Assembly: GCA_963742755.1 (NCBI GenBank)
Contig: CAVUMU010000002.1
Span: forward strand, 108,987 to 172,986
DNA length: 64,000 bases
Direction of reading: 5' to 3'
Source of the DNA: an uncultured Gemmatimonadales bacterium
GTDB lineage: Bacteria > Gemmatimonadota > Gemmatimonadetes > Gemmatimonadales > GWC2-71-9
Within the stretch, counting starts at the first letter, position 1, and each line of letters begins with the position of its first letter. Of this stretch, positions 10,819 to 60,435 are shown piece by piece. The notes beneath the pieces were generated by a model. The model was not told where the DNA came from. It saw only the letters and a program-made list of their open reading frames with translations, and did not search any database. A program made the translations under genes and the position numbers.

Positions 10819-11985
10819 GTGAAGAGAGACTTCGAGTACATCGTTCTCGGCCTGGGAGGGTTCGGCAGCGCCGCGGCCTACTGGCTCTCCAAACGGGCCG
10901 GGGCCGAGGTGCTGGGGCTGGAGCAGTTCGAGCTGGGTCACGTACGCGGTGAGTCGCAGGACCACTCCCGCATTATCCGGCTGTCCTATCACACCCCCGC
11001 CTATGTCGAGCTCGCCAAACACGCCTTTCGCGCCTGGGCCCAACTGGAGAAAGATTCGGGCGAGCAGATCGTGCTCAAGACCGGCGGGCTCGACTTTGCA
11101 CCCCGGATCAGCGCCATTCCGCTGACCACCTACTCCGGAAGCATGGATGCGGCGGGCGTCAGCTACGAGGCGCTGGACGCGGCAGAGATCATGCGCCGCT
11201 GGCCTCCCTTTCGACTTAGCGAAGATATCCACGGGCTCTTCCAGCCGGAGAGCGGCATCGCGATGGCGGCCCGGGGGAATGCCGCCCACCAGCGGGTCGC
11301 GCGGGAGCTCGGTGCCACCCTGCGGGACCGGGCGCCGGTAGAAGCCATCCGGCCGCTGGAGGGGTACATCGAAGTCGACGCGGGTGGAGAGCGATACCGC
11401 TGCCGGCGGCTGGTGATCGCGGCCGGCTCGTGGTCCAACCGGGCGCTGGCCCCATTCGGGATTCAACTGCCACTCACCGTCACCCAGGAGCAGGTGACCT
11501 ATTTCGCCACGGCCCGGCCCGCGGACTTCCAGCCCGGCCGCTTCCCCATCTGGATCTGGATGGACGATCCCTGCTTTTACGGCTTCCCCATCTTCGGCGA
11601 GAAGGGGCCCAAGGTGGGGCAGGACGCAGGCGGAAAGGAGGTCACCGCCGATACCCGGACCTTCGAACCAGACCAGGATGCGCTCCGCCGGGTGCAGGAC
11701 TTTCTCGGGAAGTACATCCCCAGCGCACTCGGCCCCATCATTTACACCAAGTCCTGCCTCTACACGCTCACGCCGGACCGCGACTTCGTGCTCGATGCTG
11801 TTCCGGGACATCCGAATGTGGTTGTGGCCATCGGCGGCGGTCACGGATTCAAGTTCGCCTCATTGATCGGGCGGACCTTATCCGAACTGTCCATCGACGG
11901 CGGCACCGAGCGCAACCTCGGACCGTTCCGAATCGACCGTGCCGTGCTGCAGCTGGTCAATCCTCCCCGGAACTACATGGTGTGA
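10819..11985 (+). CDS. Monomeric sarcosine oxidase / N-methyl-L-amino-acid oxidase-like flavoprotein
   Basis: 388 aa. GxGxxG fold YIVLGLGGFGSAAAYWLSKR. The signature ESQDHSRIIRLSYH and C-terminal GGGHGFKF are typical of the MSOX/MTOX (SolA-like) family. Confidence 0.8.
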   Translation: MKRDFEYIVLGLGGFGSAAAYWLSKRAGAEVLGLEQFELGHVRGESQDHSRIIRLSYHTPAYVELAKHAFRAWAQLEKDSGEQIVLKTGGLDFAPRISAIPLTTYSGSMDAAGVSYEALDAAEIMRRWPPFRLSEDIHGLFQPESGIAMAARGNAAHQRVARELGATLRDRAPVEAIRPLEGYIEVDAGGERYRCRRLVIAAGSWSNRALAPFGIQLPLTVTQEQVTYFATARPADFQPGRFPIWIWMDDPCFYGFPIFGEKGPKVGQDAGGKEVTADTRTFEPDQDALRRVQDFLGKYIPSALGPIIYTKSCLYTLTPDRDFVLDAVPGHPNVVVAIGGGHGFKFASLIGRTLSELSIDGGTERNLGPFRIDRAVLQLVNPPRNYMV

Positions 11986-28275: not shown

Positions 28276-28308
28276 CTCTCAGTACCCATCCGGTGGCCTC
28301 GTTCGGGA

Positions 28309-28418
28309 GAGTCTAGGGTCGAGGGTCTGGAGTCTACGCTCAAACCTGCGGATTGCATACATTGCGACTCTTGAATCCTGGCTCTACACCTCGACTCTAG
28401 ACGCTAGACTCTGGACCA
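28309..28418. repeat. Heptamer-array inverted repeat, GAGTCTA/GGGTCTR family (arms 28309-28336 and 28384-28418, 47-nt spacer)
   Basis: Left arm GAGTCTA GGGTCGA GGGTCTG GAGTCTA. Right arm CTACACC TCGACTC TAGACGC TAGACTC TGGACCA. Lies in the divergent LOG/AKR gap. Confidence 0.9.
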
Positions 28419-33734: not shown

Positions 33735-33851
33735 CACGGTGATTAGGGTCACAGCCTCCCGACAGGGCGATTGATAGGGTGTAGCCGCTCTACCAACACG
33801 AAGCACGGGCCCAGGTGCAGTTGGGCGTGTTCACTCATACCGAGGGTGCTT

Positions 33852-34604
33852 ATGACGAAGCTCAGAGGACTTTACGCCGGCCTGTTAGCCGGCGGCGCGG
33901 TACTTCTCGCGGGTGCTTGCAAGGACAACCGTGACACTGGTGCAGTGAACACCAAGACGGCGGAGGGCACTTCCAGCGCCCCCGCGGGCGATATGGCGGA
34001 GAACCGGGATATTGCGCTCGTCCGGGTCATCAATGCGATTCCAGCGGGCGGGCCGGTGGCCATCCTGGCGGGCGACAGCGCGGCCTTTTCCGGCGTGGAC
34101 TACAAGACGGCTACCCCGTTTCGGGAAATCCGGGACGATCGGCTCAACTTCAAGCTCGGCTCGGCCGAAAATCCCCTGGCTGAAAACCGGGAGAATCTGA
34201 ATGGCGGCGGCCACTATACGATTGTCGCCATGCCGGACGCGGGCGGAGCCGACAAGCGGAACCTGCGCGTCCTCGATGACGACCTGAAGCCCGTGACGCC
34301 GGAAAAGGCCCGGGTCCGGGTGATCAATGCGGTCCCGGGAGACCTGGAAATCAGCGTCTTTGTCAGAGGCCGGGAAGACGCGCTGTTCGACGGCGTGAAC
34401 TTCAAGAGCGAGGCTGGCTGGGATGAGATCGATCCGGTCGCCGGTACCTTGGAGATCCGTCCAGAAGGCAAGAAGAATGTTCTGGCCAGCCTGCCAAATG
34501 TGAAGTTTGAGGGTGGGAAGAGCTACACCTTCGTGGTGGCCGGCACGCCGGCCAAGCCGGAAATCATTAAGGTCGAGGATGATGTAGCCCAGAGCACGAT
34601 GTAA
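33852..34604 (+). CDS. DUF4397-domain secreted/lipoprotein
   Basis: ATG 33852, 250 aa. Lipoprotein-type signal (LLAGAC). Two repeats of the DUF4397-type pattern (VRVINAIPAGGPVAI..., VRVINAVPGDLEISV...). Confidence 0.7.
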   Translation: MTKLRGLYAGLLAGGAVLLAGACKDNRDTGAVNTKTAEGTSSAPAGDMAENRDIALVRVINAIPAGGPVAILAGDSAAFSGVDYKTATPFREIRDDRLNFKLGSAENPLAENRENLNGGGHYTIVAMPDAGGADKRNLRVLDDDLKPVTPEKARVRVINAVPGDLEISVFVRGREDALFDGVNFKSEAGWDEIDPVAGTLEIRPEGKKNVLASLPNVKFEGGKSYTFVVAGTPAKPEIIKVEDDVAQSTM

Positions 34605-34608
34605 CAAA

Positions 34609-34635
34609 GACGGAGAAGACGGAGAAGGCGGAGGG
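34609..34635 (+). repeat. Purine-rich 9-mer tandem array (GACGGAGAA GACGGAGAA GGCGGAGGG), 5 nt after the stop codon
   Basis: Read directly. Same unit family as 54926-54990 and 57844-57879. Confidence 0.85.
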
Positions 34636-34661
34636 GTCCGGCGCGGCCCCCCCGCTTTTTT
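34633..34661 (+). terminator. Intrinsic terminator (GC stem + T6)
   Basis: GGGGTCCG gcg CGGCCCC stem (one bulge), followed by CCCGCTTTTTT. It overlaps the end of the 9-mer array. Confidence 0.65.
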
Positions 34662-34779
34662 CTGTTCTGGCCCCCGTCCCCACCATCCCTTCTCCCCTCT
34701 TCCCGTCCGCGCTTTCCGGCCGCATCATATGTCGCGTCTTATGGAACCTCCCAGCGCAGTTGTCCTCAAGGAGATCGCG

Positions 34780-35367
34780 ATGAACCTCGTCGAACGCGTC
34801 AAGCGGATCCTGCTGTCACCTCAGAGCGAGTGGGAGGTTATTGCTGCAGAGCCCACTACTACGGCCGACCTGTATACGAAGTACATCGCTCCACTCGCGG
34901 CGATCGGACCGGTCGCGCAATTGATCGGCTTCTCGGTTTTCGGCGTTTCCCTCCCCGGACCCAATTACCGCGTTCCAATCGGAGCCGGTCTCACCTCAGC
35001 GATCGTGAGTTTCGCGTTGGCCCTGGCGGGTACCTACGTGCTGGCCCTGATCATTGATGCCTTGGCCCCCACGTTTAACGGCCAGCGGAGCCAGGCTCAG
35101 GCCTTGAAAGTCGCCGCGTACTCCAGCACCCCCTACTGGCTGGCCGGGATCTTTGCGCTCTTGCCGGGGTTGTGGATTCTTTCGCTACTGGGACTCTACA
35201 GCGTCTACCTGCTGTATCTCGGCCTTCCGGTGCTGATGAAGGCCCCGCGCGACCGGGCGTTGGCCTACACCGGAGTCGTCATCATTGCGGGAATCGTGCT
35301 GGGCATCGTCATCAGCACCATAGCTGGCTTCTTCCTGAGGGTGCCGGGGTACGGCATGACGATGTGA
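34780..35367 (+). CDS. Yip1-domain (DUF1282-like) membrane protein
   Basis: ATG 34780, preceded by AAGGAGA. 195 aa. N-terminus MNLVERVKRILLSPQSEWEVI plus five hydrophobic helices. Confidence 0.7.
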   Translation: MNLVERVKRILLSPQSEWEVIAAEPTTTADLYTKYIAPLAAIGPVAQLIGFSVFGVSLPGPNYRVPIGAGLTSAIVSFALALAGTYVLALIIDALAPTFNGQRSQAQALKVAAYSSTPYWLAGIFALLPGLWILSLLGLYSVYLLYLGLPVLMKAPRDRALAYTGVVIIAGIVLGIVISTIAGFFLRVPGYGMTM

Positions 35368-39424: not shown

Positions 39425-39609
39425 GAAAGGTCTAGGGTCTAGTGTCAGGGATCGAAGCATAACCTTCATTTGTATTGATAACGTCTAGGAGACGGGTTCA
39501 CCATGGTGCGCCGGTTAAGTCCAGATCCTAGACTCCTGGACCCTGGACCCTGGACCCTGGACCCTGGACCCTAGGCCCTAGACTCCAGACTTTAGACTCT
39601 AGACCTTTC
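39425..39609. repeat. Heptamer-array inverted repeat, GGTCTAG/CCTGGAC family (left arm 3 units 39429-39449, right arm 12 units 39521-39604)
   Basis: The right arm includes five perfect CCTGGAC copies (39535-39569). Terminal 18-bp inverted repeat 39425-39442 / 39592-39609 (11 perfect bp GAAAGGTCTAG/CTAGACCTTTC, then 5 Watson-Crick and 2 G-T). AT-richer 70-nt centre. Confidence 0.9.
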
Positions 39610-53897: not shown

Positions 53898-54926
53898 GTG
53901 GCCGAGCAGGAGCTGAAAGACATATCCATCATCGGCGGAGGCCCAACCGGCCTGTTTGCCGCATTCTACGCGGGCATGCGTGGGGCGTCGGCGCGCATCA
54001 TCGACGCACTCCCGGCGCTGGGCGGCCAGCTGATGGCCCTCTACCCAGAGAAGTACATCTTCGATGTAGCGGGCTTTCCCAAGGTACTGGCCAAGGATCT
54101 GGTCAGGGACATGGCGACGCAGGCGCTGCAGTTCGGAGCCACTACCCACCTGGGCGAGATCGTGACCGGACTCCGGCGGGTGGAGGAGAACGGAGCCAGT
54201 CACTTCGTGCTCGAGACTTCGGAGTCCGAGTATCCCACGCGGACGATCGTAATTGCCGCGGGTATCGGCGCGTTCGAGGCTCGGAAGCTGGGCATCGAGG
54301 GCGAGGATGGTTTCGAGGAGAAAGGGCTCTACTTCAAGGTGCTGGACCCGAAACAGTTCCAGGGTCAGCGGGTGCTTCTGGTGGGCGGCGGCGATTCCGC
54401 GTTCGACTGGGCGGTGAACCTGCAGGGCATTGCGAAGTCCATCACCCTCATCCACCGGCGCGACGGGTTCCGGGCCCACCAGGCAACAATCAGCCAGGTG
54501 CAGGAATTTCAGCGCGCCGGGAAATGCGATCTGCGCACCTTCTGGGAGGTCAGAGCCCTACACGGCAACGGCAAGGTCGAGCGGGTCACCATCTTCAACA
54601 GCAAGACCAAGCAAGAGGAGACGCTCGATATGGACGCGGTCATCCCACTGCTCGGGTTCCACTCCGACCTCGGGGCTATCAAGGAATGGGGGCTCGATAC
54701 CGAGAAGGCCGACATCAAAGTGGATCAGGTCATGGCCACCAACGTGCCCGGGATCTACGCCGCGGGGGACATCACCAACTATCCCGGTAAGCTCAAGTTG
54801 ATCGCCACCGGCGCGGGCGAGGCCTGCATCGCGGTGAACAATGCGGTGCACTGGATCAATCCCAAGGCCAAGGTGAATCCGGGACATTCATCCAATATGG
54901 CGCTCTTCGGGCAGAAGGACGATTAG
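53898..54926 (+). CDS. Thioredoxin-reductase-like ferredoxin-NADP(+) reductase
   Basis: GTG 53898, preceded by AGAGGAGA. 342 aa. ISIIGGGPTGLFAAFYAGMRG, ALGGQL, GGGDSAFDWA and AAGDI motifs. Confidence 0.85.
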   Translation: MAEQELKDISIIGGGPTGLFAAFYAGMRGASARIIDALPALGGQLMALYPEKYIFDVAGFPKVLAKDLVRDMATQALQFGATTHLGEIVTGLRRVEENGASHFVLETSESEYPTRTIVIAAGIGAFEARKLGIEGEDGFEEKGLYFKVLDPKQFQGQRVLLVGGGDSAFDWAVNLQGIAKSITLIHRRDGFRAHQATISQVQEFQRAGKCDLRTFWEVRALHGNGKVERVTIFNSKTKQEETLDMDAVIPLLGFHSDLGAIKEWGLDTEKADIKVDQVMATNVPGIYAAGDITNYPGKLKLIATGAGEACIAVNNAVHWINPKAKVNPGHSSNMALFGQKDD

Positions 54927-54990
54927 CGGGAGAGCGGAAAGGCGGGAAAGGCGGGAAAGGCGGGAAAGGCGGGAAGGACGGGAAGGAGGG
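54926..54990 (+). repeat. Purine-rich 9-mer tandem array, about 7 units (GGCGGGAAA core x3 perfect), starting at the stop codon
   Basis: GCGGGAGA GCGGAAA GGCGGGAAA GGCGGGAAA GGCGGGAAA GGCGGGAAG GACGGGAAG GAGGG. Read directly. I could find no convincing inverted partner. Confidence 0.9.
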
Positions 54991-55020
54991 CCGCGAGTCA
55001 TCCCGAGCCCTTCGCCCTGC

Positions 55021-56298
55021 TCAGGGTAAACTCTGCGAGGGATCGCTCATCGTGACGTCTGCTCGAGATCGTAGGGATACCTGCCCCCATGCCAGGCTCA
55101 ACCCAAACAGAAGCAGCATCACCCACGCAAAGACACTGTAACCGGCCAGGTAGTGATGGAGACGACTGCCGATCAGATCGCGCCCCAGTCCCAGGACCAG
55201 GATGCCTCCCCACGCCAGTCCCAGCGCTATCCGCCCCGCTCGTCCGAACCGAGTAAAATCCAGCGCGAAGAAGGCATAGAAAACGAACAGGAGCGTGACC
55301 AGGTGCGCCTTCCAGGTGATTCCTGACAACAGGTGGCCTGCCAGGAAAACGCTGGAGATCTCGAGCGCTCCGATTTGCCGCTTTGCGAGCCTCAACCGCA
55401 CCAGATGGGTCAGGAAGGCTGCCAGTAATCCCAATGCCAGCACCCGATAGATCCTGGGGGCGGCTGGGGCGAGGGATGGCACGTAGGCGTATTCGTAGGG
55501 CGGCACATCTTCGGCTGCTGCCGGAACGGCGGCCCGGTAGACCAGAGCGGCAAGATTCTGGTTCCGATAATTCGTAAGCACCCCTCCCGAAGCGAACTGC
55601 TGAAGAAAACTTCCATAGTAGTCCTTCAGGTCCGCCGACCCCTGCGCCACTCCTCGCTGAGCGACCGGCAGCACCAGGCACAGCACCCCAGCTACGGCGA
55701 TGGCTGCGACAGTGCGCCGGCTTCCGCGAATCACGGCCCAAACGAGAAAGAAGACGGGTGTGAGCTTGATGGCGGTTGCCGCCGCGAGCCAGCCTCCGGC
55801 CGCCGCCTTCTGCCTCGACACGAACGCCTGTACTCCCAGGAGGCAGAGAACGAAGATCACCAGATTCACCTGAACGTGTGCCAGGTTGTCCAGCATGAAT
55901 CCGGCAGAGCAGAGCACAGCCAGGGCCAGCGGGAGCGCGCCCGGCCGTGGTGGCGGCTGCAACCGCTGGACGATGTCGCGGGATAGCCCAACCGCGAGGA
56001 GGATGAGTCCGACACTCGCCACGTAGAAAAACAGCGCCGCCGTTTTCAGCGGAAAGAGGCCGAGGATCTGGAAGACCTGAGCTGCGAAAGGCGGATAGTT
56101 GAAGTGGCGGGCGCCGGGAAGCGACTGGTAGAGCGGCAGTCCGTGGGCAAAATCGTAGCCTGCCTGCCAGAACACATGGAAATCGGTGCCAACGTCCTGC
56201 TTGGCGGCTCGACGGGCCGCCGCAGCGATGATCACCACTCCAAGGAGGAGGGCTCCGAGGGCTCGGCTCCAGTACCACGGCCCCCTCTTATCGCTCAC
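55021..56298 (-). CDS. GT87/DUF2029-family polytopic membrane glycosyltransferase-like protein
   Basis: 425 aa, about 10 TM helices. N-terminal TDFHVFWQAGYDFAHGLPLYQ...FNYPPFAA is typical of DUF2029 mannosyltransferase-like proteins. Confidence 0.7.
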   Translation of the reverse strand: MSDKRGPWYWSRALGALLLGVVIIAAAARRAAKQDVGTDFHVFWQAGYDFAHGLPLYQSLPGARHFNYPPFAAQVFQILGLFPLKTAALFFYVASVGLILLAVGLSRDIVQRLQPPPRPGALPLALAVLCSAGFMLDNLAHVQVNLVIFVLCLLGVQAFVSRQKAAAGGWLAAATAIKLTPVFFLVWAVIRGSRRTVAAIAVAGVLCLVLPVAQRGVAQGSADLKDYYGSFLQQFASGGVLTNYRNQNLAALVYRAAVPAAAEDVPPYEYAYVPSLAPAAPRIYRVLALGLLAAFLTHLVRLRLAKRQIGALEISSVFLAGHLLSGITWKAHLVTLLFVFYAFFALDFTRFGRAGRIALGLAWGGILVLGLGRDLIGSRLHHYLAGYSVFAWVMLLLFGLSLAWGQVSLRSRADVTMSDPSQSLP

Positions 56299-56334: not shown

Positions 56335-57843
56335 TCACCGCACGCCTTTCGCCATTTCCACAACCACACTGTCGATCACACCCAGAATCGACCGGGAGGA
56401 CTGGGCGTGGTGGTTCGCCTGCACGGAGAAGGTCAGGAATCTTCCCCGATCGAGCTCGACGTAGCCGGAGAGGGTGTTGACCCGGGAGATGCTTCCGGTT
56501 TTCCCTCGTACCCGGCCGGCGAGCGAGGTCCCCACGAATCGGGTTCGGAGCGAGCCGGTGGCGCCTGCCTGCGGGAGCCCGGCCGCAAACGTGGGATAGT
56601 GCCGGTGCCGCCGGATGAAGCGGAGAATCTGGGTGAATGCCAGGGGGCTTACCAGGTTGGTGCTGGAGAGACCGGAGCCGTCGCTCAGCGATATTTGGGT
56701 CGAGTCCACCCGCACCGAATCGATCAGAAAGCGCCGCTCCACCTCCAGGCCTTCGGGCCAGGAGCCGCCCCGGCCGAACTGCTTGCCGAGCTGCTTCAAC
56801 AACATCTCCGCGAACCAGTTCTGACTGGTGTTCAGAATGGGAAAGATCCAGTCGCGCAGCGGGCGGGAGAATACCTCCGCCAGTGGGGGGGTCGCCCGTA
56901 AACCGGCGTAAAGAGTGGAGTCGGTGGTGGAACGGGTGGTGCCTGCAACCGAGATACCTGCGTCTGCCAGTGCCTGACGCAGGGCTCGCGCGGCGTACAG
57001 GTTGGGATCCGGCAGCGCGAACGACTCGATGCGCCGCGGATTGTCCATGGCCACGGTGCCTTCGGCCCAGATTCGGAGGGTCCCAGGATGCCGGAAGAAG
57101 CGGTCCCCGATGTCCGACTCCCCCCCGGGCGGGACCGTGACCGTGCGGTTCTCGAAGGCGATGTCTCCGAGATCCGGACTCATCGAGATCACGGCGGGTG
57201 CACCGGGCCCGGGCCCCGGCTGCCAGGTGAAGTCGACGCTATTGTCGTGGAAGCCGAGCCCCGAGACCGGCGCGGCATACCACCAGTTGAGATCAAACTG
57301 CTCCCAATTCGGGTGGATCAAGGTGGGCTCGAAGTAGCTGCCGTCCCCTACCACGTCTCCGGCAATCAGCTGCACCCCCAGGCTTCGGAGCGAGTCGGCC
57401 AGCTGCCGCAGCCGGCCGAGCGGATCGGTGTCGCACACGCCGACGAGGGTGGAGTCGGTGGCGTAACAGCGGCGATCCATGGTCGGATCGCCCCGGCCGT
57501 AGAGCAGCAAATCCCCCAGGAGGACGCCGCCCACCACCGGCCCGCCGTAGACACTGGTCTTCACCCGCCAGTCGGGTGGGAGAAGCGCGGAGGCAACAGC
57601 GCTGACAACCAGCTTGGTGTTGCTGGCGGGAATGAAGAGACGATCCGCATTCCGGCCGTAGACCAGCCGCCCACTCTGGTCCGCCAGTGCCACGCCCCAG
57701 AGCTGCCGGTTGAACGGTGGACGGTCCAGGCGAGCATCGAGGCGCTTGGCCAGGGATTGGGCGGCTGCGCCGGCCGAGAGGACGGAGAGGACGCAGAGGG
57801 CACAGAAGGCTCGCAGCAACCCCCGTCTCCATCCTGTCACCAC
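56335..57843 (-). CDS. dacB: D-alanyl-D-alanine carboxypeptidase/endopeptidase, PBP4 (S13) family
   Basis: GTG 57843 (or 57840). Signal peptide LCVLSVLSAGAAAQ. SxxK motif FIPASNTKL. The ORF-track extension to 57915 only translates the 9-mer array (EDGEGGEGGEDGK). Confidence 0.85.
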   Translation of the reverse strand: MVTGWRRGLLRAFCALCVLSVLSAGAAAQSLAKRLDARLDRPPFNRQLWGVALADQSGRLVYGRNADRLFIPASNTKLVVSAVASALLPPDWRVKTSVYGGPVVGGVLLGDLLLYGRGDPTMDRRCYATDSTLVGVCDTDPLGRLRQLADSLRSLGVQLIAGDVVGDGSYFEPTLIHPNWEQFDLNWWYAAPVSGLGFHDNSVDFTWQPGPGPGAPAVISMSPDLGDIAFENRTVTVPPGGESDIGDRFFRHPGTLRIWAEGTVAMDNPRRIESFALPDPNLYAARALRQALADAGISVAGTTRSTTDSTLYAGLRATPPLAEVFSRPLRDWIFPILNTSQNWFAEMLLKQLGKQFGRGGSWPEGLEVERRFLIDSVRVDSTQISLSDGSGLSSTNLVSPLAFTQILRFIRRHRHYPTFAAGLPQAGATGSLRTRFVGTSLAGRVRGKTGSISRVNTLSGYVELDRGRFLTFSVQANHHAQSSRSILGVIDSVVVEMAKGVR

Positions 57844-57879
57844 CTTTCCGTCTTCACCGCCCTCCCCGCCTTCTCCGTC
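57844..57879 (-). repeat. Purine-rich 9-mer tandem array x4 (minus-strand sense GACGGAGAA GGCGGGGAG GGCGGTGAA GACGGAAAG)
   Basis: Occupies essentially the whole 37-nt spacer between the ABC permease stop (57881-57883) and the dacB GTG (57843). Confidence 0.9.
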
Positions 57880-57880
57880 C

Positions 57881-58801
57881 TCAATCATACGCCACTCTTG
57901 GATCCACCCGCGCATACAGCAGGTCGGTCAGCAGGTTCACCATCACGAAGACCAGGCTGAGAAAGAGAATGCTCCCCTGTACCGCAGGGAGGTCACGCTT
58001 GTCGATGGCGGTGAGGACATAGCGGCCAACTCCAGGCCAGGAGAAAATGGTCTCAGTCAGAATGGAGCCGGTCAGATAACTGCCGAAGTCGAGCCCCAGT
58101 ACGGTGACAACGGGCAGAAGGGCATTTCGAAATCCGTGCGACAGTACCACCCGGCCTTCGTGCAATCCTTTGGCACGTGCTGTGCGAATAAAGTCGCTCT
58201 GGAGCACCTCCTGCATGGCCGCGCGCGTCATCCGCGACAAGAAGGCAACCGATCTCATACCCAGGGTGATGGCGGGAAGGATCAGGTAGATGAGCCCGGC
58301 CGATCCCGACGGTGGCAGCCAGCGCAAATGCACCGCGAAGATCAGGATCAGGATCAGGCCCACCCAATAGACCGGGAACGAGACCCCCAGGTAGGCGCCG
58401 AAAGTCGCGAACCGGTCGGCCCAGCTGCCCGGCCGCCAGGCTCCAAAGATGCCGACCGCGATGCCGACAACCGCGGCGAAGAGCATCGCGGCGCCGGCCA
58501 GCCGGAGCGTCGCGGGAAATCGCTCGAGCAGGTCCCGCAGGATCGGACGCCGGGTGATGTAACTGGTGCCGAGATCGCCCTGGAGAACGCCGCCGATGTA
58601 GTGCCCGAACTGCTGGTAGAGCGGGTCGTCCAGCCGCAGCTCGGCCCGGAGGCGGGCGAGCGTCTCGGCGTCGGCTCGCTCTCCGACCATCGCTTGCACC
58701 GGGTCTCCCGGGGCGACATAGAGCAGCAGGAAGGTGACCAGCAGCACGCCAAACAGGGTGGGGACGAGCAGCGCGAGCCGGTACAGGATGAACCGGCTCA
58801 C
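57881..58801 (-). CDS. ABC transporter permease, peptide/nickel (DppB/OppB-like)
   Basis: 306 aa. N-terminus FILYRLALLVPTLFGVLLVTFLLLYVAPGDP and an EAA-type loop region. Confidence 0.9.
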   Translation of the reverse strand: MSRFILYRLALLVPTLFGVLLVTFLLLYVAPGDPVQAMVGERADAETLARLRAELRLDDPLYQQFGHYIGGVLQGDLGTSYITRRPILRDLLERFPATLRLAGAAMLFAAVVGIAVGIFGAWRPGSWADRFATFGAYLGVSFPVYWVGLILILIFAVHLRWLPPSGSAGLIYLILPAITLGMRSVAFLSRMTRAAMQEVLQSDFIRTARAKGLHEGRVVLSHGFRNALLPVVTVLGLDFGSYLTGSILTETIFSWPGVGRYVLTAIDKRDLPAVQGSILFLSLVFVMVNLLTDLLYARVDPRVAYD

Positions 58802-60344: not shown

Positions 60345-60435
60345 CAGCGGGGCAGGGGGCAGGGGGCAGGGGGCAGTAAAAGTTCACTGAGCCGGCTGAA
60401 CCGGGCAACCGCCCCGCGGCCCCGCGGCCCCGCTG
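60345..60435. repeat. GC-rich 7/8-mer-array inverted repeat, GGGGGCA / GCGGCCCC family (arms 60345-60376 and 60409-60435)
   Basis: CAGCGGGGCA GGGGGCA GGGGGCA GGGGGCA G ... CCGCCCC GCGGCCCC GCGGCCCC GCTG. The outer 9 bp CAGCGGGGC/GCCCCGCTG are perfectly complementary. Confidence 0.85.

Follow-up and report, generated by a model that had tools for sequence, protein, structure and literature searches.

Tandem arrays of purine-rich 9-nt units stand beside stop codons at three places in the window, i.e., the whole stretch of 64,000 nt of Gemmatimonadales DNA that was analysed. We asked whether these arrays represent a separate class of post-stop elements, as a preliminary description of the sequence had it, and which role they may play. 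We found that all three are the purine arms of one clade-wide, fast-evolving population of slippage-prone 7–9-nt tandem arrays in soil Gemmatimonadales.

Purine-Rich Arrays of the Window

The presence of the arrays at the three positions was confirmed by TRF and by motif search across the 64-kb window. Two consecutive GRCGGRRAR units, with at most one mismatch, were matched 11 times at four sites in the window against 0.06 expected, far beyond chance, and the arrays adjoin stop codons with gaps of 0–4 nt. As had also been described, the purine-rich strand is the sense strand of the upstream gene, with 86–90% purine at loci 1, 2 and 3. Rfam 15 covariance models gave nothing at the gathering score across the whole window; around locus 1 there was nothing at E ≤ 1, and locus 2 returned only sub-threshold matches to generic miRNA hairpins. 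A consensus terminator scan of the window showed no enrichment (6 vs. 7.1 and 11 vs. 7.9 expected).

A Lone Array Between Convergent Genes

Locus 1 and its surroundings comprise the following features.

53898–54926, plus strand: FNR-like flavoprotein gene (Pfam domain Pyr_redox_2), its TAG adjoining locus 1
54926–54990, plus strand: locus 1, purine-rich period-9 array of about 7 units, 5 of them clean (TRF, motif search)
54997–55050, no strand assigned: REP-like palindromic element GTCATCCCGAGC...GCGAGGGATC, 6 nt past the array
55021–56298, minus strand: GT87 glycosyltransferase gene, convergent with the FNR-like gene

The array fills part of the 94-nt spacer between the two convergent genes. 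TRF reports it at 54936–54984 with period 9, 5.4 copies, 95% matches and a score of 84. Five clean units of the form GGCGGGAAR/GACGGGAAG occupy 54941–54985 (5 matches vs. 0.13 expected), and degenerate units precede them as far as the last base of the TAG (54924–54926). No inverted partner and no significant fold (z +1.36) were found at this locus. Its units contain six G3 tracts with 6-nt loops, which form a canonical G-quadruplex motif at 54944–54990 (G4Hunter 1.34).

Exact-protein look-ups with the window's permease and FNR-like protein gave no record, and strain variation was therefore read from the relatives L001 and L002 and from homologs of the DUF4397 protein. The FNR-like proteins of L001 and L002 are both 97% identical to that of the window; in the same spacer, L001 carries a degenerate tract and L002 has 15 nt, against about 7 units in the window. 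We infer that locus 1 is an arm that expanded recently relative to these two relatives, without a demonstrable role of its own. Across genomes, the spacer behind the FNR-like gene holds differing 7–9-mer arrays, in most cases with an inverted copy. The 5′ half of the neighbouring REP-like element is kept in both L001 and L002. Its GTCATCCCGAGC motif occurs in 55 copies in 2.0 Mb, 10 of which have a purine tract at most 70 nt upstream; a literature search on this element found nothing.

An Array Built Into a Terminator-Like Stem

Behind the DUF4397 gene, the second array is part of a larger structure.

33846–34604, plus strand: DUF4397 gene, upstream of locus 2
34609–34636, plus strand: locus 2, three purine-rich 9-mers GACGGAGAA, GACGGAGAA, GGCGGAGGG (TRF, GRCGGRRAR search)
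34623–34661, plus strand: intrinsic-terminator-like hairpin (match of the hairpin plus T-run scan)
34677–34710, plus strand: pyrimidine-rich partner tract of the locus 2 array, closing with it an outer hairpin of about 100 nt

The units begin at 34609, 4 nt past the TAA at 34602–34604 (TRF: 34607–34633, period 9, 3.0 copies), and the last of them is the 5′ arm (34623–34635) of the terminator stem, the 3′ arm of which lies at 34648–34660 and the T-run at 34656–34661. The 13 pairs of this stem are kept in seven orthologous spacers, two of the pairs with compensatory changes. The locus folds with an MFE of −53.7 kcal/mol (z −2.73; matched by 1 of 200 shuffles), and at the position of the pyrimidine-rich tract orthologs carry (TTCCCGTCC)n and similar arrays. 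A GC-rich hairpin followed by a T-run past the stop was found at locus 2 only, and not at loci 1 and 3. In the locus 2 array, the 5′ arm of an intrinsic terminator has probably been duplicated. Yip1, the gene that follows, begins with ATG at 34780 and has an AAGGAG Shine-Dalgarno sequence 6 nt before it. Strains with an identical upstream DUF4397 protein have two or three units here; together with L001 and L002 at locus 1, this makes unit number variable between strains.

An Array Probably Read as Codons at the Permease-PBP4 Junction

The third array lies at the junction of two genes of the minus strand.

57881–58801, minus strand: ABC-transporter permease gene upstream of locus 3, its product ending in ...DPRVAYD before the stop codon
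57844–57880, minus strand: locus 3, four purine-rich 9-mers just past the permease TGA (GRCGGRRAR search)
57772–57808, minus strand: inverted partner of locus 3, period 9, pyrimidine-rich in the mRNA sense, encoding CALCVLSVLS
56335–57888, minus strand: Peptidase_S13 ORF (PBP4-like D-Ala-D-Ala carboxypeptidase; Pfam)

Four units fit GRCGGRRAR at 57879–57844, 1 nt past the TGA (57883–57881), and are seen weakly by TRF (period 18, 1.9 copies). The ATG of the PBP4-like ORF (57888) overlaps the permease stop (ATGATTGA), and in its frame the array reads D-G-E-G-G-E-G-G-E-D-G-K; the predicted N-terminal peptide is MIEDGEGGEGGEDGK... The inverted partner (TRF: 57776–57799, period 9, 2.7 copies) consists of the core codons of the signal peptide, and orthologs encode LPVLPV or LSVLSV at this position. 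The two arms are 31 nt long and 77% complementary (pair I6), and the RNA hairpin has −58.5 kcal/mol (z −2.87); the ortholog hairpins reach −62 to −92 kcal/mol with z-scores of −4 to −8.7.

From genome to genome both arms switch their unit together; although the unit changes, at least 12 of 19 genomes retain an array or hairpin at the junction. The frame from ATG 57888 into the PBP4-like gene is open in 18 of the 19, genomes with 8-nt units included (binomial P ~3e-8), the one out of frame being L006. It is therefore likely that locus 3 is translated, and the array appears to form an in-frame N-terminal extension of the PBP4-like protein. Since it lies inside an ORF whose ATG overlaps the upstream stop, locus 3 is probably not a 3′-UTR. 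As RNA, the array would pair with the signal-peptide codons of its own ORF, and translation of PBP4 is probably coupled to that of the permease gene, at the end of which ribosomes would open the stem from its base.

The idea of a partnerless second class of 3′-UTR elements thus holds for locus 1 only and fails for the other two loci, where the inverted partner had been overlooked. As two of the three loci have such partners, the arrays do not stand apart from the heptamer elements from which they had been separated. Nor is a distinct period-9 class supported, because relatives carry units of the GGACGGRA type both as 8-mers and as 9-mers, and periods 7 and 8 dominate among intergenic arrays.

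Layout of Arrays Across the Clade

The census covers the window and 80 related loci, in total 1.39 Mb of Gemmatimonadales DNA with 1,080 gene calls, made by a purpose-made codon-bias caller, so that start codons are approximate; the counts are not independent, because the 80 loci are orthologous neighbourhoods. Intergenic arrays number 46 of period 7, 53 of period 8 and 7 of period 9, the 99 arrays of the two shorter periods lying within the roughly 8% of the DNA that is not called as genes. Units are diverse: the 67 arrays of 7-mers comprise 38 distinct units, and the 69 arrays of 8-mers comprise 29.

Where an array is paired with an inverted partner (n = 104), the 5′ arm is purine-rich in 97 cases and pyrimidine-rich in 6, with no 5′ arm at a purine fraction of 0.3 or less. 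An independent metagenome scan for three consecutive GRCGGRRAR units gave the same order, with the partner downstream in at least 42 arrays (24 contigs) and upstream in none among the matches listed. In the standard layout, a purine-rich array is thus followed by a loop and then by its pyrimidine-rich inverted counterpart; one arm alone also occurs. This layout is identical when read from either strand, and an array beside any stop codon is therefore purine-rich in the sense of that gene.

Relative to stop codons, most element edges fall between −4 and +8 nt. On the purine strand, the 5′ end hugs a gene boundary (median distance 6 nt vs. 80 nt on the 3′ side; 99 vs. 26), a trend repeated in the metagenome contigs. 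The predicted preference in orientation and position is thus strong in the 1.39 Mb. Yet, the sense-strand rule follows from the general layout given above and does not support a 3′-UTR function peculiar to these arrays. The 5′ end of the purine strand adjoins starts of opposite-strand genes about as frequently (67 cases) as it adjoins stops (58); the mRNA sense of such start-adjoining arrays is pyrimidine-rich. Of 96 convergent spacers, 19 contain pairs, against 58 of 753 co-directional and 8 of 150 divergent ones, which makes convergent spacers enriched 2.6-fold over co-directional ones. Three array pairs were found in divergent spacers of the window.

The repeat hairpins of the clade average about −80 kcal/mol, and most pairs have no T-run. 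In the 8-nt tail of pairs the mean number of T is 2.3 in sense and 1.1 in antisense, a weak difference from small, non-independent samples. When mismatches in the hairpins of co-directional spacers were counted on the sense strand, G.U (86) was not in excess over A.C (79), hence these hairpins bear no strand-specific signature of selection on RNA pairing; the complementarity of the arms could arise at the level of DNA alone. In the 1.39 Mb, only 16 sites past stops of the called genes tested combine a hairpin with a T-run. Their G-first bias is mild (10 vs. 6), and the polarity could thus not be derived from ordinary terminators.

Possible Origin and Role of the Arrays

As a whole explanation, we favour, at a probability of about 55%, that the arrays are purine arms of fast-evolving tandem-repeat hairpins which act as stem-loops behind ORFs. 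Replication slippage would change the number of units, intrastrand template switching between the arms would keep them complementary, and the effect would be a very stable RNA stem-loop straight behind the upstream ORF; the lone arm of locus 1 could fold as a G-quadruplex instead. Pairs in divergent spacers (8 of 150, three in the window) make little sense under a terminator role, and this explanation does not account for the purine-first polarity as such.

The main competitor, which we consider possible and clearly less probable, is that the arrays are a neutral by-product, i.e., functionless long-unit microsatellites that arise by slippage and template switching and are kept only where they do no harm, in spacers and in tolerant signal-peptide codons. 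Polarity and boundary-hugging would then reflect a mutational bias. The great diversity of units and their turnover at orthologous spacers fit such an origin, as do the unequal copy number in near-identical strains, the entry of arrays into coding sequence where nearly any hydrophobic residues suffice, the missing G.U bias and the occurrence of arrays in every type of spacer. Rehm et al. (2015; PMC4692102) likewise report no function for the arrays of Xanthomonas or Nostoc. Mutation alone accounts less readily for a polarity that is near-absolute (97 vs. 6 in the census; at least 42 vs. 0 among the metagenome matches listed), for the 2.6-fold enrichment of convergent spacers, for the retention of an array or hairpin in at least 12 of 19 genomes at the permease-PBP4 junction, and for the locus 2 unit that belongs to a conserved terminator stem.

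A G-quadruplex in the non-template DNA or at the 3′ end of the mRNA, with GGCGGGAAA as the candidate unit, would block or terminate polymerases or protect the RNA end. The G3 tracts of locus 1 described above suit it, other partnerless arrays in relatives are G4-capable as well (L025, GGCGGTCG/GGCGGGGC; L035, GTGGGACA), and formation in vitro was demonstrated for the Xanthomonas and Nostoc units (PMC4692102). As a general role we nevertheless regard it as unlikely: the canonical G3 motif is absent from the locus 2 and 3 arrays, most units of the clade, such as GTGAGAA, GGACGGAA and AGCTATT, lack a G3 tract, the window shows no enrichment of quadruplex motifs (12 vs. 10.8 expected), and a partnered stem of −50 to −90 kcal/mol would outcompete the quadruplex. 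An insulator related to Rho appears still less probable. It would mean, purely by reasoning from the layout, that with the purine arm first the nascent RNA stays G-rich, and hence a poor substrate for Rho, up to the immediate pairing of the C-rich arm. A lone purine arm would present a C-rich, rut-like tract only to antisense polymerases entering the gene; at locus 1 it would stop read-through from the convergent GT87 gene. Indeed, the polarity is alike for transcription from either side, the minus-strand transcript at locus 1 would have a 63-nt C-rich, G-poor tract that starts about 30 nt past the GT87 stop, and the rarity of hairpin plus T-run terminators (16 among the called genes tested) makes factor-dependent termination probably important in the clade. 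Lone sense-pyrimidine arrays, however, stand just before many start codons, where a rut would attenuate the gene's own expression.

Ribosome capture or re-initiation, one of the roles originally put forward, supposes that SD-like GGAG, AGGA and GGAA cores retain terminating ribosomes or 30S subunits and pass them on to a downstream start. The organism does use a canonical SD, as before the Yip1 ATG, GGAG or AGGA occurs within array units, and at locus 3 the last unit (GGAAAGG) is followed by GTG codons at 57843 and 57840. Yet, convergent locus 1 has no co-directional gene downstream, at locus 2 the next start lies about 145 nt away, behind the terminator hairpin, and at locus 3 the conserved frame favours translation through the array from the overlapping ATG; moreover, the same family of units stands as often before starts, on the opposite strand and pyrimidine-rich in the mRNA. 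We thus hold this role for very improbable, and the least credible of all is triplex or H-DNA formation by the polypurine.polypyrimidine tracts. Although one strand is 86–90% purine, a C interrupts every unit, and H-DNA is unlikely because the longest purine runs are short (8–11 nt) and the units are not mirror repeats; many units of the same system are merely 55–70% purine. A CsrA sponge, conceivable from a GGA every 9 nt, was dropped because GGA is missing from most units of the family.

Gemmatimonadales offer a good test ground for the function of such repeats, since canonical terminators are rare and repeat hairpins of about −80 kcal/mol stand behind many stops. For annotation, the permease-PBP4 junction, where both hairpin arms appear to lie in coding sequence, imposes a constraint on calling starts and signal peptides in MAGs. 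A bolder proposal, which we offer as a doubtful conjecture, is that purine-first repeat hairpins take the place of classical terminators in Gemmatimonadota, and by analogy also in Xanthomonas, as a self-renewing system independent of sequence. Very long stems directly behind ORFs would then be created and homogenised continually by slippage and by template switching between the arms, and they would end or insulate transcripts both ways without a U-tract. The purine-first order would be required to keep any C-rich Rho-loading tract from being exposed on the nascent RNA. If the second arm falls in coding sequence that tolerates it, for which the permease-PBP4 junction is the example, both arms would be translated, and an 8-nt unit gained or lost would switch the downstream gene on or off.

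Comparison With Known Systems

Translational coupling via an RNA structure that occludes the downstream start is classical in operons and RNA phages. Locus 3 resembles these systems in that its stem starts 1 nt past the stop of the upstream gene, with the beginning of the next ORF enclosed in it, and differs in that the stem is made of tandem repeats with both arms apparently coding; the coupling itself is a prediction from this arrangement. With intrinsic terminators the arrays share a stable hairpin behind the stop, and at locus 2 a GC-rich stem with an A-rich stretch before it and a T-run behind it is conserved among orthologs. In contrast, the tandem-unit stems are far longer (about −80 kcal/mol on average) and mostly without a T-run, as loci 1 and 3 are.

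REPs occur as scattered copies of a single conserved sequence that RAYT transposases mobilise. Like REP, BIME and REPIN elements, the arrays form imperfect palindromes in spacers, often past stops and between convergent genes. Unlike them, each array has a locus-specific unit and an internal tandem structure, and there is no single conserved palindrome. The REP-like element that adjoins locus 1 is distinct from the array and may itself qualify.

The cyanobacterial STRR heptamers and the TAACTGA direct repeats are also tandem heptamers in spacers close to ORF boundaries, and their function is unknown (MacGregor, 2015; PMC4679880). The TAACTGA repeats consist of one fixed unit placed just upstream of starts on the coding strand and are nearly always direct, with one indirect set in 170; they do not display the purine-first inverted pairing of the Gemmatimonadales arrays (PMC4679880). 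Our literature search found nothing on repeats of Gemmatimonadetes or Gemmatimonas, and no follow-up of the Xanthomonas repeat work considered below.

The closest known systems are the G-rich heptameric SSR arrays of Xanthomonas (GGGAATC) and Nostoc [GGGGA(C/T)T] (Rehm et al., 2015, PLoS One; PMC4692102). These arrays are G-rich on the coding strand 0–50 bp past stops, some overlapping the stop, and G-rich on the non-coding strand 0–50 bp before starts; they hug the 5′ neighbour ORF in either orientation and are under-represented between divergent ORFs (PMC4692102). Many convergent inverted pairs, i.e., in G-first order, occur among them, lengths vary among close relatives with the single or paired type being kept, and a G-quadruplex role was proposed for the GGGAATC and GGGGAYT repeats (PMC4692102).

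The Gemmatimonadales arrays agree with them in their head-to-tail, G-rich units of 7–9 nt and over-representation in non-coding DNA, in a lower share in divergent spacers, in a purine strand that hugs the 5′ neighbour ORF (median 6 vs. 80 nt), in the frequency of purine-first inverted pairs (97 of 104; loci 2 and 3 in the window) and in a unit number that varies among relatives at loci 1, 2 and 3. In turn, the arrays of Xanthomonas and those of Nostoc are each built on a single consensus unit, which has a G3–4 tract and is preferably repeated four times, whereas the Gemmatimonadales arrays have dozens of unrelated units, mostly without G3, in periods 7 and 8 with a tail of 9, belong to another phylum, Gemmatimonadota, and can have one arm inside coding sequence. 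In the arrays of Rehm et al. each unit has a tract of at least three G, by which four or more units would form a G-quadruplex; the corresponding motif is present at locus 1 only and absent from the arrays of loci 2 and 3 and from most units of the clade. As the layout rules of this repeat type were published in 2015, the arrays described here open no new category; rather, the same rules, i.e., purine- or G-first pairs, hugging of ORF boundaries and fast change of length, hold in a distant phylum. That they do so with dozens of unrelated units argues for a general process or constraint and not for one motif or a G-quadruplex.

Purine-Rich Arrays of the Window

We found that all three purine-rich arrays which the preliminary description had placed behind stop codons are present in the sequence, but a fourth site, the inverted copy of the third array, had been overlooked. 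The arrays and their neighbours, as classified by Pfam, are:

54936–54984, plus strand: locus 1; TRF period 9, 5.4 copies, 95% matches, score 84; flanked by a Pyr_redox_2 (FNR-like) gene and, converging on it, a GT87 glycosyltransferase gene
34607–34633, plus strand: locus 2; TRF period 9, 3.0 copies, first unit 4 nt past a TAA; with a DUF4397 gene upstream and a Yip1 gene downstream
57879–57844, minus strand: locus 3; four units, 1 nt past a TGA (57883–57881); flanked by genes for an ABC permease and a Peptidase_S13 (PBP4-like) protein
57772–57798, plus strand: inverted copy of locus 3

Locus 1 comprises five clean units (54941–54985), preceded by degenerate ones that begin at the terminal G of the TAG codon (54924–54926), and TRF reported locus 3 only as period 18 with 1.9 copies. 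Scanning the window (65% G+C) for two consecutive GRCGGRRAR units with at most one mismatch gave 11 matches at the four sites against 0.06 expected; the consensus common to the three arrays is not due to chance. No Rfam family was matched in the regions of loci 1–3. Soil Gemmatimonadales MAGs encode orthologs of the FNR-like protein with 97% identity. Downstream of locus 2, the start of the Yip1 gene is ATG 34780 rather than one of the longer ORF starts (34729/34741). Within 34768–34782 a perfect AAGGAG precedes this ATG; thus the organism uses canonical Shine-Dalgarno sequences.

Paired Arrays Across the Clade

Our census covered the window and 80 related Gemmatimonadales loci (1.39 Mb), with arrays detected by TRF and genes called approximately by a codon-bias model of our own; being orthologous neighbourhoods, the 80 loci are not independent. 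Intergenic arrays mostly have periods of 7 (46 arrays) or 8 (53), less often 9 (7) or 10 (5), and never 6, a sharp preference more in keeping with slippage being mechanically constrained than with a motif being selected. Among 104 pairs of an array and its inverted partner, 97 begin with a purine-rich and six with a pyrimidine-rich 5′ arm, the purine fraction of this arm averaging 0.74 and never being 0.3 or lower. As the purine-loop-pyrimidine layout is identical on both strands, any gene ending beside such an element meets purines first. This layout alone suffices to explain the earlier rule that the purine-rich strand is the sense strand of the upstream gene, which holds at loci 1–3 but is contradicted, among the metagenome matches listed, by contigs L196 and L130.

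Element edges lie mostly between -4 and +8 nt relative to stops, and pairs are present in 19 of the 96 spacers between convergent genes, 58 of the 753 between co-directional genes and 8 of the 150 between divergent genes. When all skewed arrays are oriented by their purine strand, the gene boundary lies at a median of 6 nt from the 5′ end versus 80 nt at the 3′ end (99 versus 26). These observations establish the architecture, the polarity and the gene-boundary closeness of the elements. The boundary nearest the 5′ end is formed by a stop codon in 58 cases and by an opposite-strand start codon in 67.

In the window, heptamer array pairs (GGTCTAG/CCTGGAC and others) occupy divergent spacers at 39425–39609, 28308–28412 and 60349–60433, filling them nearly from start codon to start codon with no obvious room for a promoter, an arrangement at odds with a role as terminators. 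In this clade, intrinsic terminators of the classical type seem rare: a hairpin and T-run within 90 nt past a stop was found at only 16 called genes or sites in the whole 1.39 Mb, and a consensus terminator scan revealed no enrichment of canonical terminators in the window. This scarcity leaves room for another kind of 3′-end structure, without proving one.

Array Turnover at Locus 1

The reported lack of an inverted partner stood for locus 1, but loci 2 and 3 have partners at 34677–34710 and 57772–57808, respectively. Locus 1 shows no significant RNA fold (z +1.36) and its unit does not recur elsewhere within the window. Behind the FNR-like genes of the relatives, the array in the orthologous spacer differs from genome to genome (AGCTATT, GTGAGAG, GTCTAGA, GGTGAAC, GATGGGCG, GGACGGAA, GGCGGTCA or GTGGGACA); an inverted copy accompanies most of these arrays and is absent for some, and very short spacers carry no array. 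In the two closest relatives (L001 and L002) the flanks are alignable but the array, of about seven units in the window, is a degenerate purine tract in L001 and 15 nt (cgggaaggacggggg) in L002; the array at locus 1 has thus expanded in a lineage-specific manner. A G-quadruplex, absent from the roles proposed earlier, is possible for locus 1 alone, which has six G3 tracts and a G4Hunter score of 1.34.

In the related locus L035, a purine-rich (AGTGGGAC)n array past the FNR-like stop (11020–11091) is separated by about 510 nt from its inverted partner (11603–11759), much above the usual distance, which could reflect an insertion into the loop. Beside locus 1 (54997–55050) lies a REP-like element, (T)GTCATCCCGAGCGnAGCGAGGGATC, often found as an inverted doublet, with other copies in L036 (11142 and, on the minus strand, 9837), L096, L125, L012 (11051) and L001 (7900). 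We counted 55 copies in 2.0 Mb of DNA, 10 with a purine tract at most 70 nt upstream; in L036 the element is nested between the purine and the pyrimidine arm. A literature search gave no match to its string.

A Duplicated Terminator-Like Arm at Locus 2

As RNA, the locus 2 spacer folds into a hairpin of about 100 nt (-53.7 kcal/mol, z -2.73), whose arms are the purine array and its pyrimidine-rich partner. Six contigs encode an identical DUF4397 protein, and the array behind the gene changes in copy number, with two units (GGACGGAGAA-GGCGGAGAGG) in L202 and L206 and three, through one extra GGCGGAGAA, in L203, L204, L205 and L207. In seven orthologous spacers, the last unit together with the preceding AGAA pairs with CTCTCCGC-TTTTT, forming a conserved terminator-like stem (13 pairs conserved, two with compensatory changes), and the consensus terminator scan also picks this site; the locus 2 array thus represents a duplication of the 5′ arm in a predicted intrinsic terminator. 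Pyrimidine arrays farther downstream in the orthologs, e.g., (TTCCCGTCC)4, are able to lengthen the stem.

A Probably Translated Array at Locus 3

Locus 3 forms with its partner an RNA structure of -58.5 kcal/mol (z -2.87), and five of eight folded orthologs reach -62 to -92 kcal/mol (z -4 to -8.7). In all genomes compared the permease ends in ...DPRVAYD* with the purine array directly 3′, its unit being GGACGGGAA, GGCGGAGAA, GGACGGAGA or GGAAGGAC depending on the genome, while a matching pyrimidine array, which encodes LPVLPV, LSVLSV or the like, sits within the part of the PBP4-like gene that specifies the signal peptide. Between genomes, both arms co-vary. In 18 of 19 genomes (chance probability ~3e-8), the ATG inside TAT-GAy-TGA, 5 nt before the permease stop codon, begins a frame that stays open into the mature PBP4 motif. 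This frame is conserved even with 8-nt units (L003, L005, L025, L030), and in array-less genomes (L035, L043, L009) a normal signal peptide begins from or just past the same ATG. The simplest reading of these sequences is a translated in-frame insertion, with the predicted window product MIEDGEGGEGGEDGK preceding the signal peptide. Given also that the codon-bias gene caller chose ATG 57888 as the PBP4-like start, locus 3, although geometrically after a stop, is probably not untranslated. The junction ATG is out of frame only in L006 (12590–12720), where gain or loss of one 8-10-nt unit could switch the gene off in a phase-variation-like manner; assembly collapse could also be responsible.

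Metagenomic Distribution

A scan of metagenome contigs for three GRCGGRRAR units gave at least 120 stretches, a pattern-selected sample. The matches listed come chiefly from soil contigs of 60–74% G+C, and about a quarter are ordinary coding tripeptide repeats. Among the matches listed, an inverted partner lies downstream of the purine array in 42 cases (24 contigs) and upstream in none. Lone arrays just past stops with the purine-rich strand as sense (L133, L183, L167, L189) are at most as numerous as those lying 5–30 nt ahead of an opposite-strand start codon (L109, L174, L188, L158, L121, L124, L197). Pyrimidine-rich period-9 arrays were also seen in N-terminal coding regions of unrelated contigs, encoding the hydrophobic cores LSVLSVLSV (L085, 3843–3878), FSAFSAFSA (L136, 9015–9050) and LPRLPRLPR (L164, 1069–1095), which suggests that repeats invade signal-peptide or membrane-anchor codons again and again. 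In contig L141 (~2230–2303, reverse-complement coordinates), a GACGGAGAA-type array begins about 10 nt beyond the apparent 3′ terminus of a tRNA gene (GGTTCGAGTCCCGTCGCCCGC); the boundary-hugging rule may extend to RNA genes.

Possible Mechanism and Alternatives

Slippage would give rise to the arrays and alter their size, and arm-to-arm template switching would maintain complementarity. The RNA stems may terminate or protect transcripts at locus 2 and at paired elements in tail-to-tail and head-to-tail spacers, and the locus 3 stem would couple PBP4 translation to ribosomes completing the permease gene. This mechanism is tempered by the lack of G.U excess over A.C among sense-strand hairpin mismatches (86 vs 79), the pairs in divergent spacers, the weak sense-strand T excess behind stems and the partnerless locus 1. 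That the purine-first order avoids naked C-rich, Rho-binding RNA is our best guess, and only a guess.

As to the roles proposed previously, triplex or H-DNA formation was rejected as unlikely, given purine runs of just 8–11 nt without mirror symmetry. Ribosome capture is possible at locus 3 only, and even there translation through the array fits better. Sequence-specific 3′-UTR protein binding is unlikely because the units are highly diverse, with 38 different 7-mers and 29 different 8-mers in the census (commonest 8-mer, GGACGGAA). The purine arrays are a real feature, but not a separate second repeat class, and were partly mis-described; the clade-wide repeat system is a reasonable experimental target.

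Relation to Known Repeats

For Gemmatimonadota, our literature search turned up no work on repeats of this type. The arrays belong to a known kind of bacterial long-unit microsatellite, since their rules equal those of the G-rich heptamer arrays of Xanthomonas and Nostoc (Rehm et al., 2015; PMC4692102). The latter lie closest to the 5′ neighbour ORF, whatever its orientation: arrays past stops are on the coding strand, up to 50 bp away and in some cases overlapping the stop codon, and arrays ahead of starts are on the non-coding strand, again up to 50 bp away. Each Xanthomonas genome has 70–75 convergent inverted pairs. Between divergent ORFs the arrays are under-represented, and they differ in length among close relatives; they form G4 structures in vitro, and no function was found (PMC4692102). 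The Gemmatimonadales arrays follow the same positional and pairing rules, but differ in their many unit sequences, periods of up to 9 and, mostly, the lack of a G3 tract.
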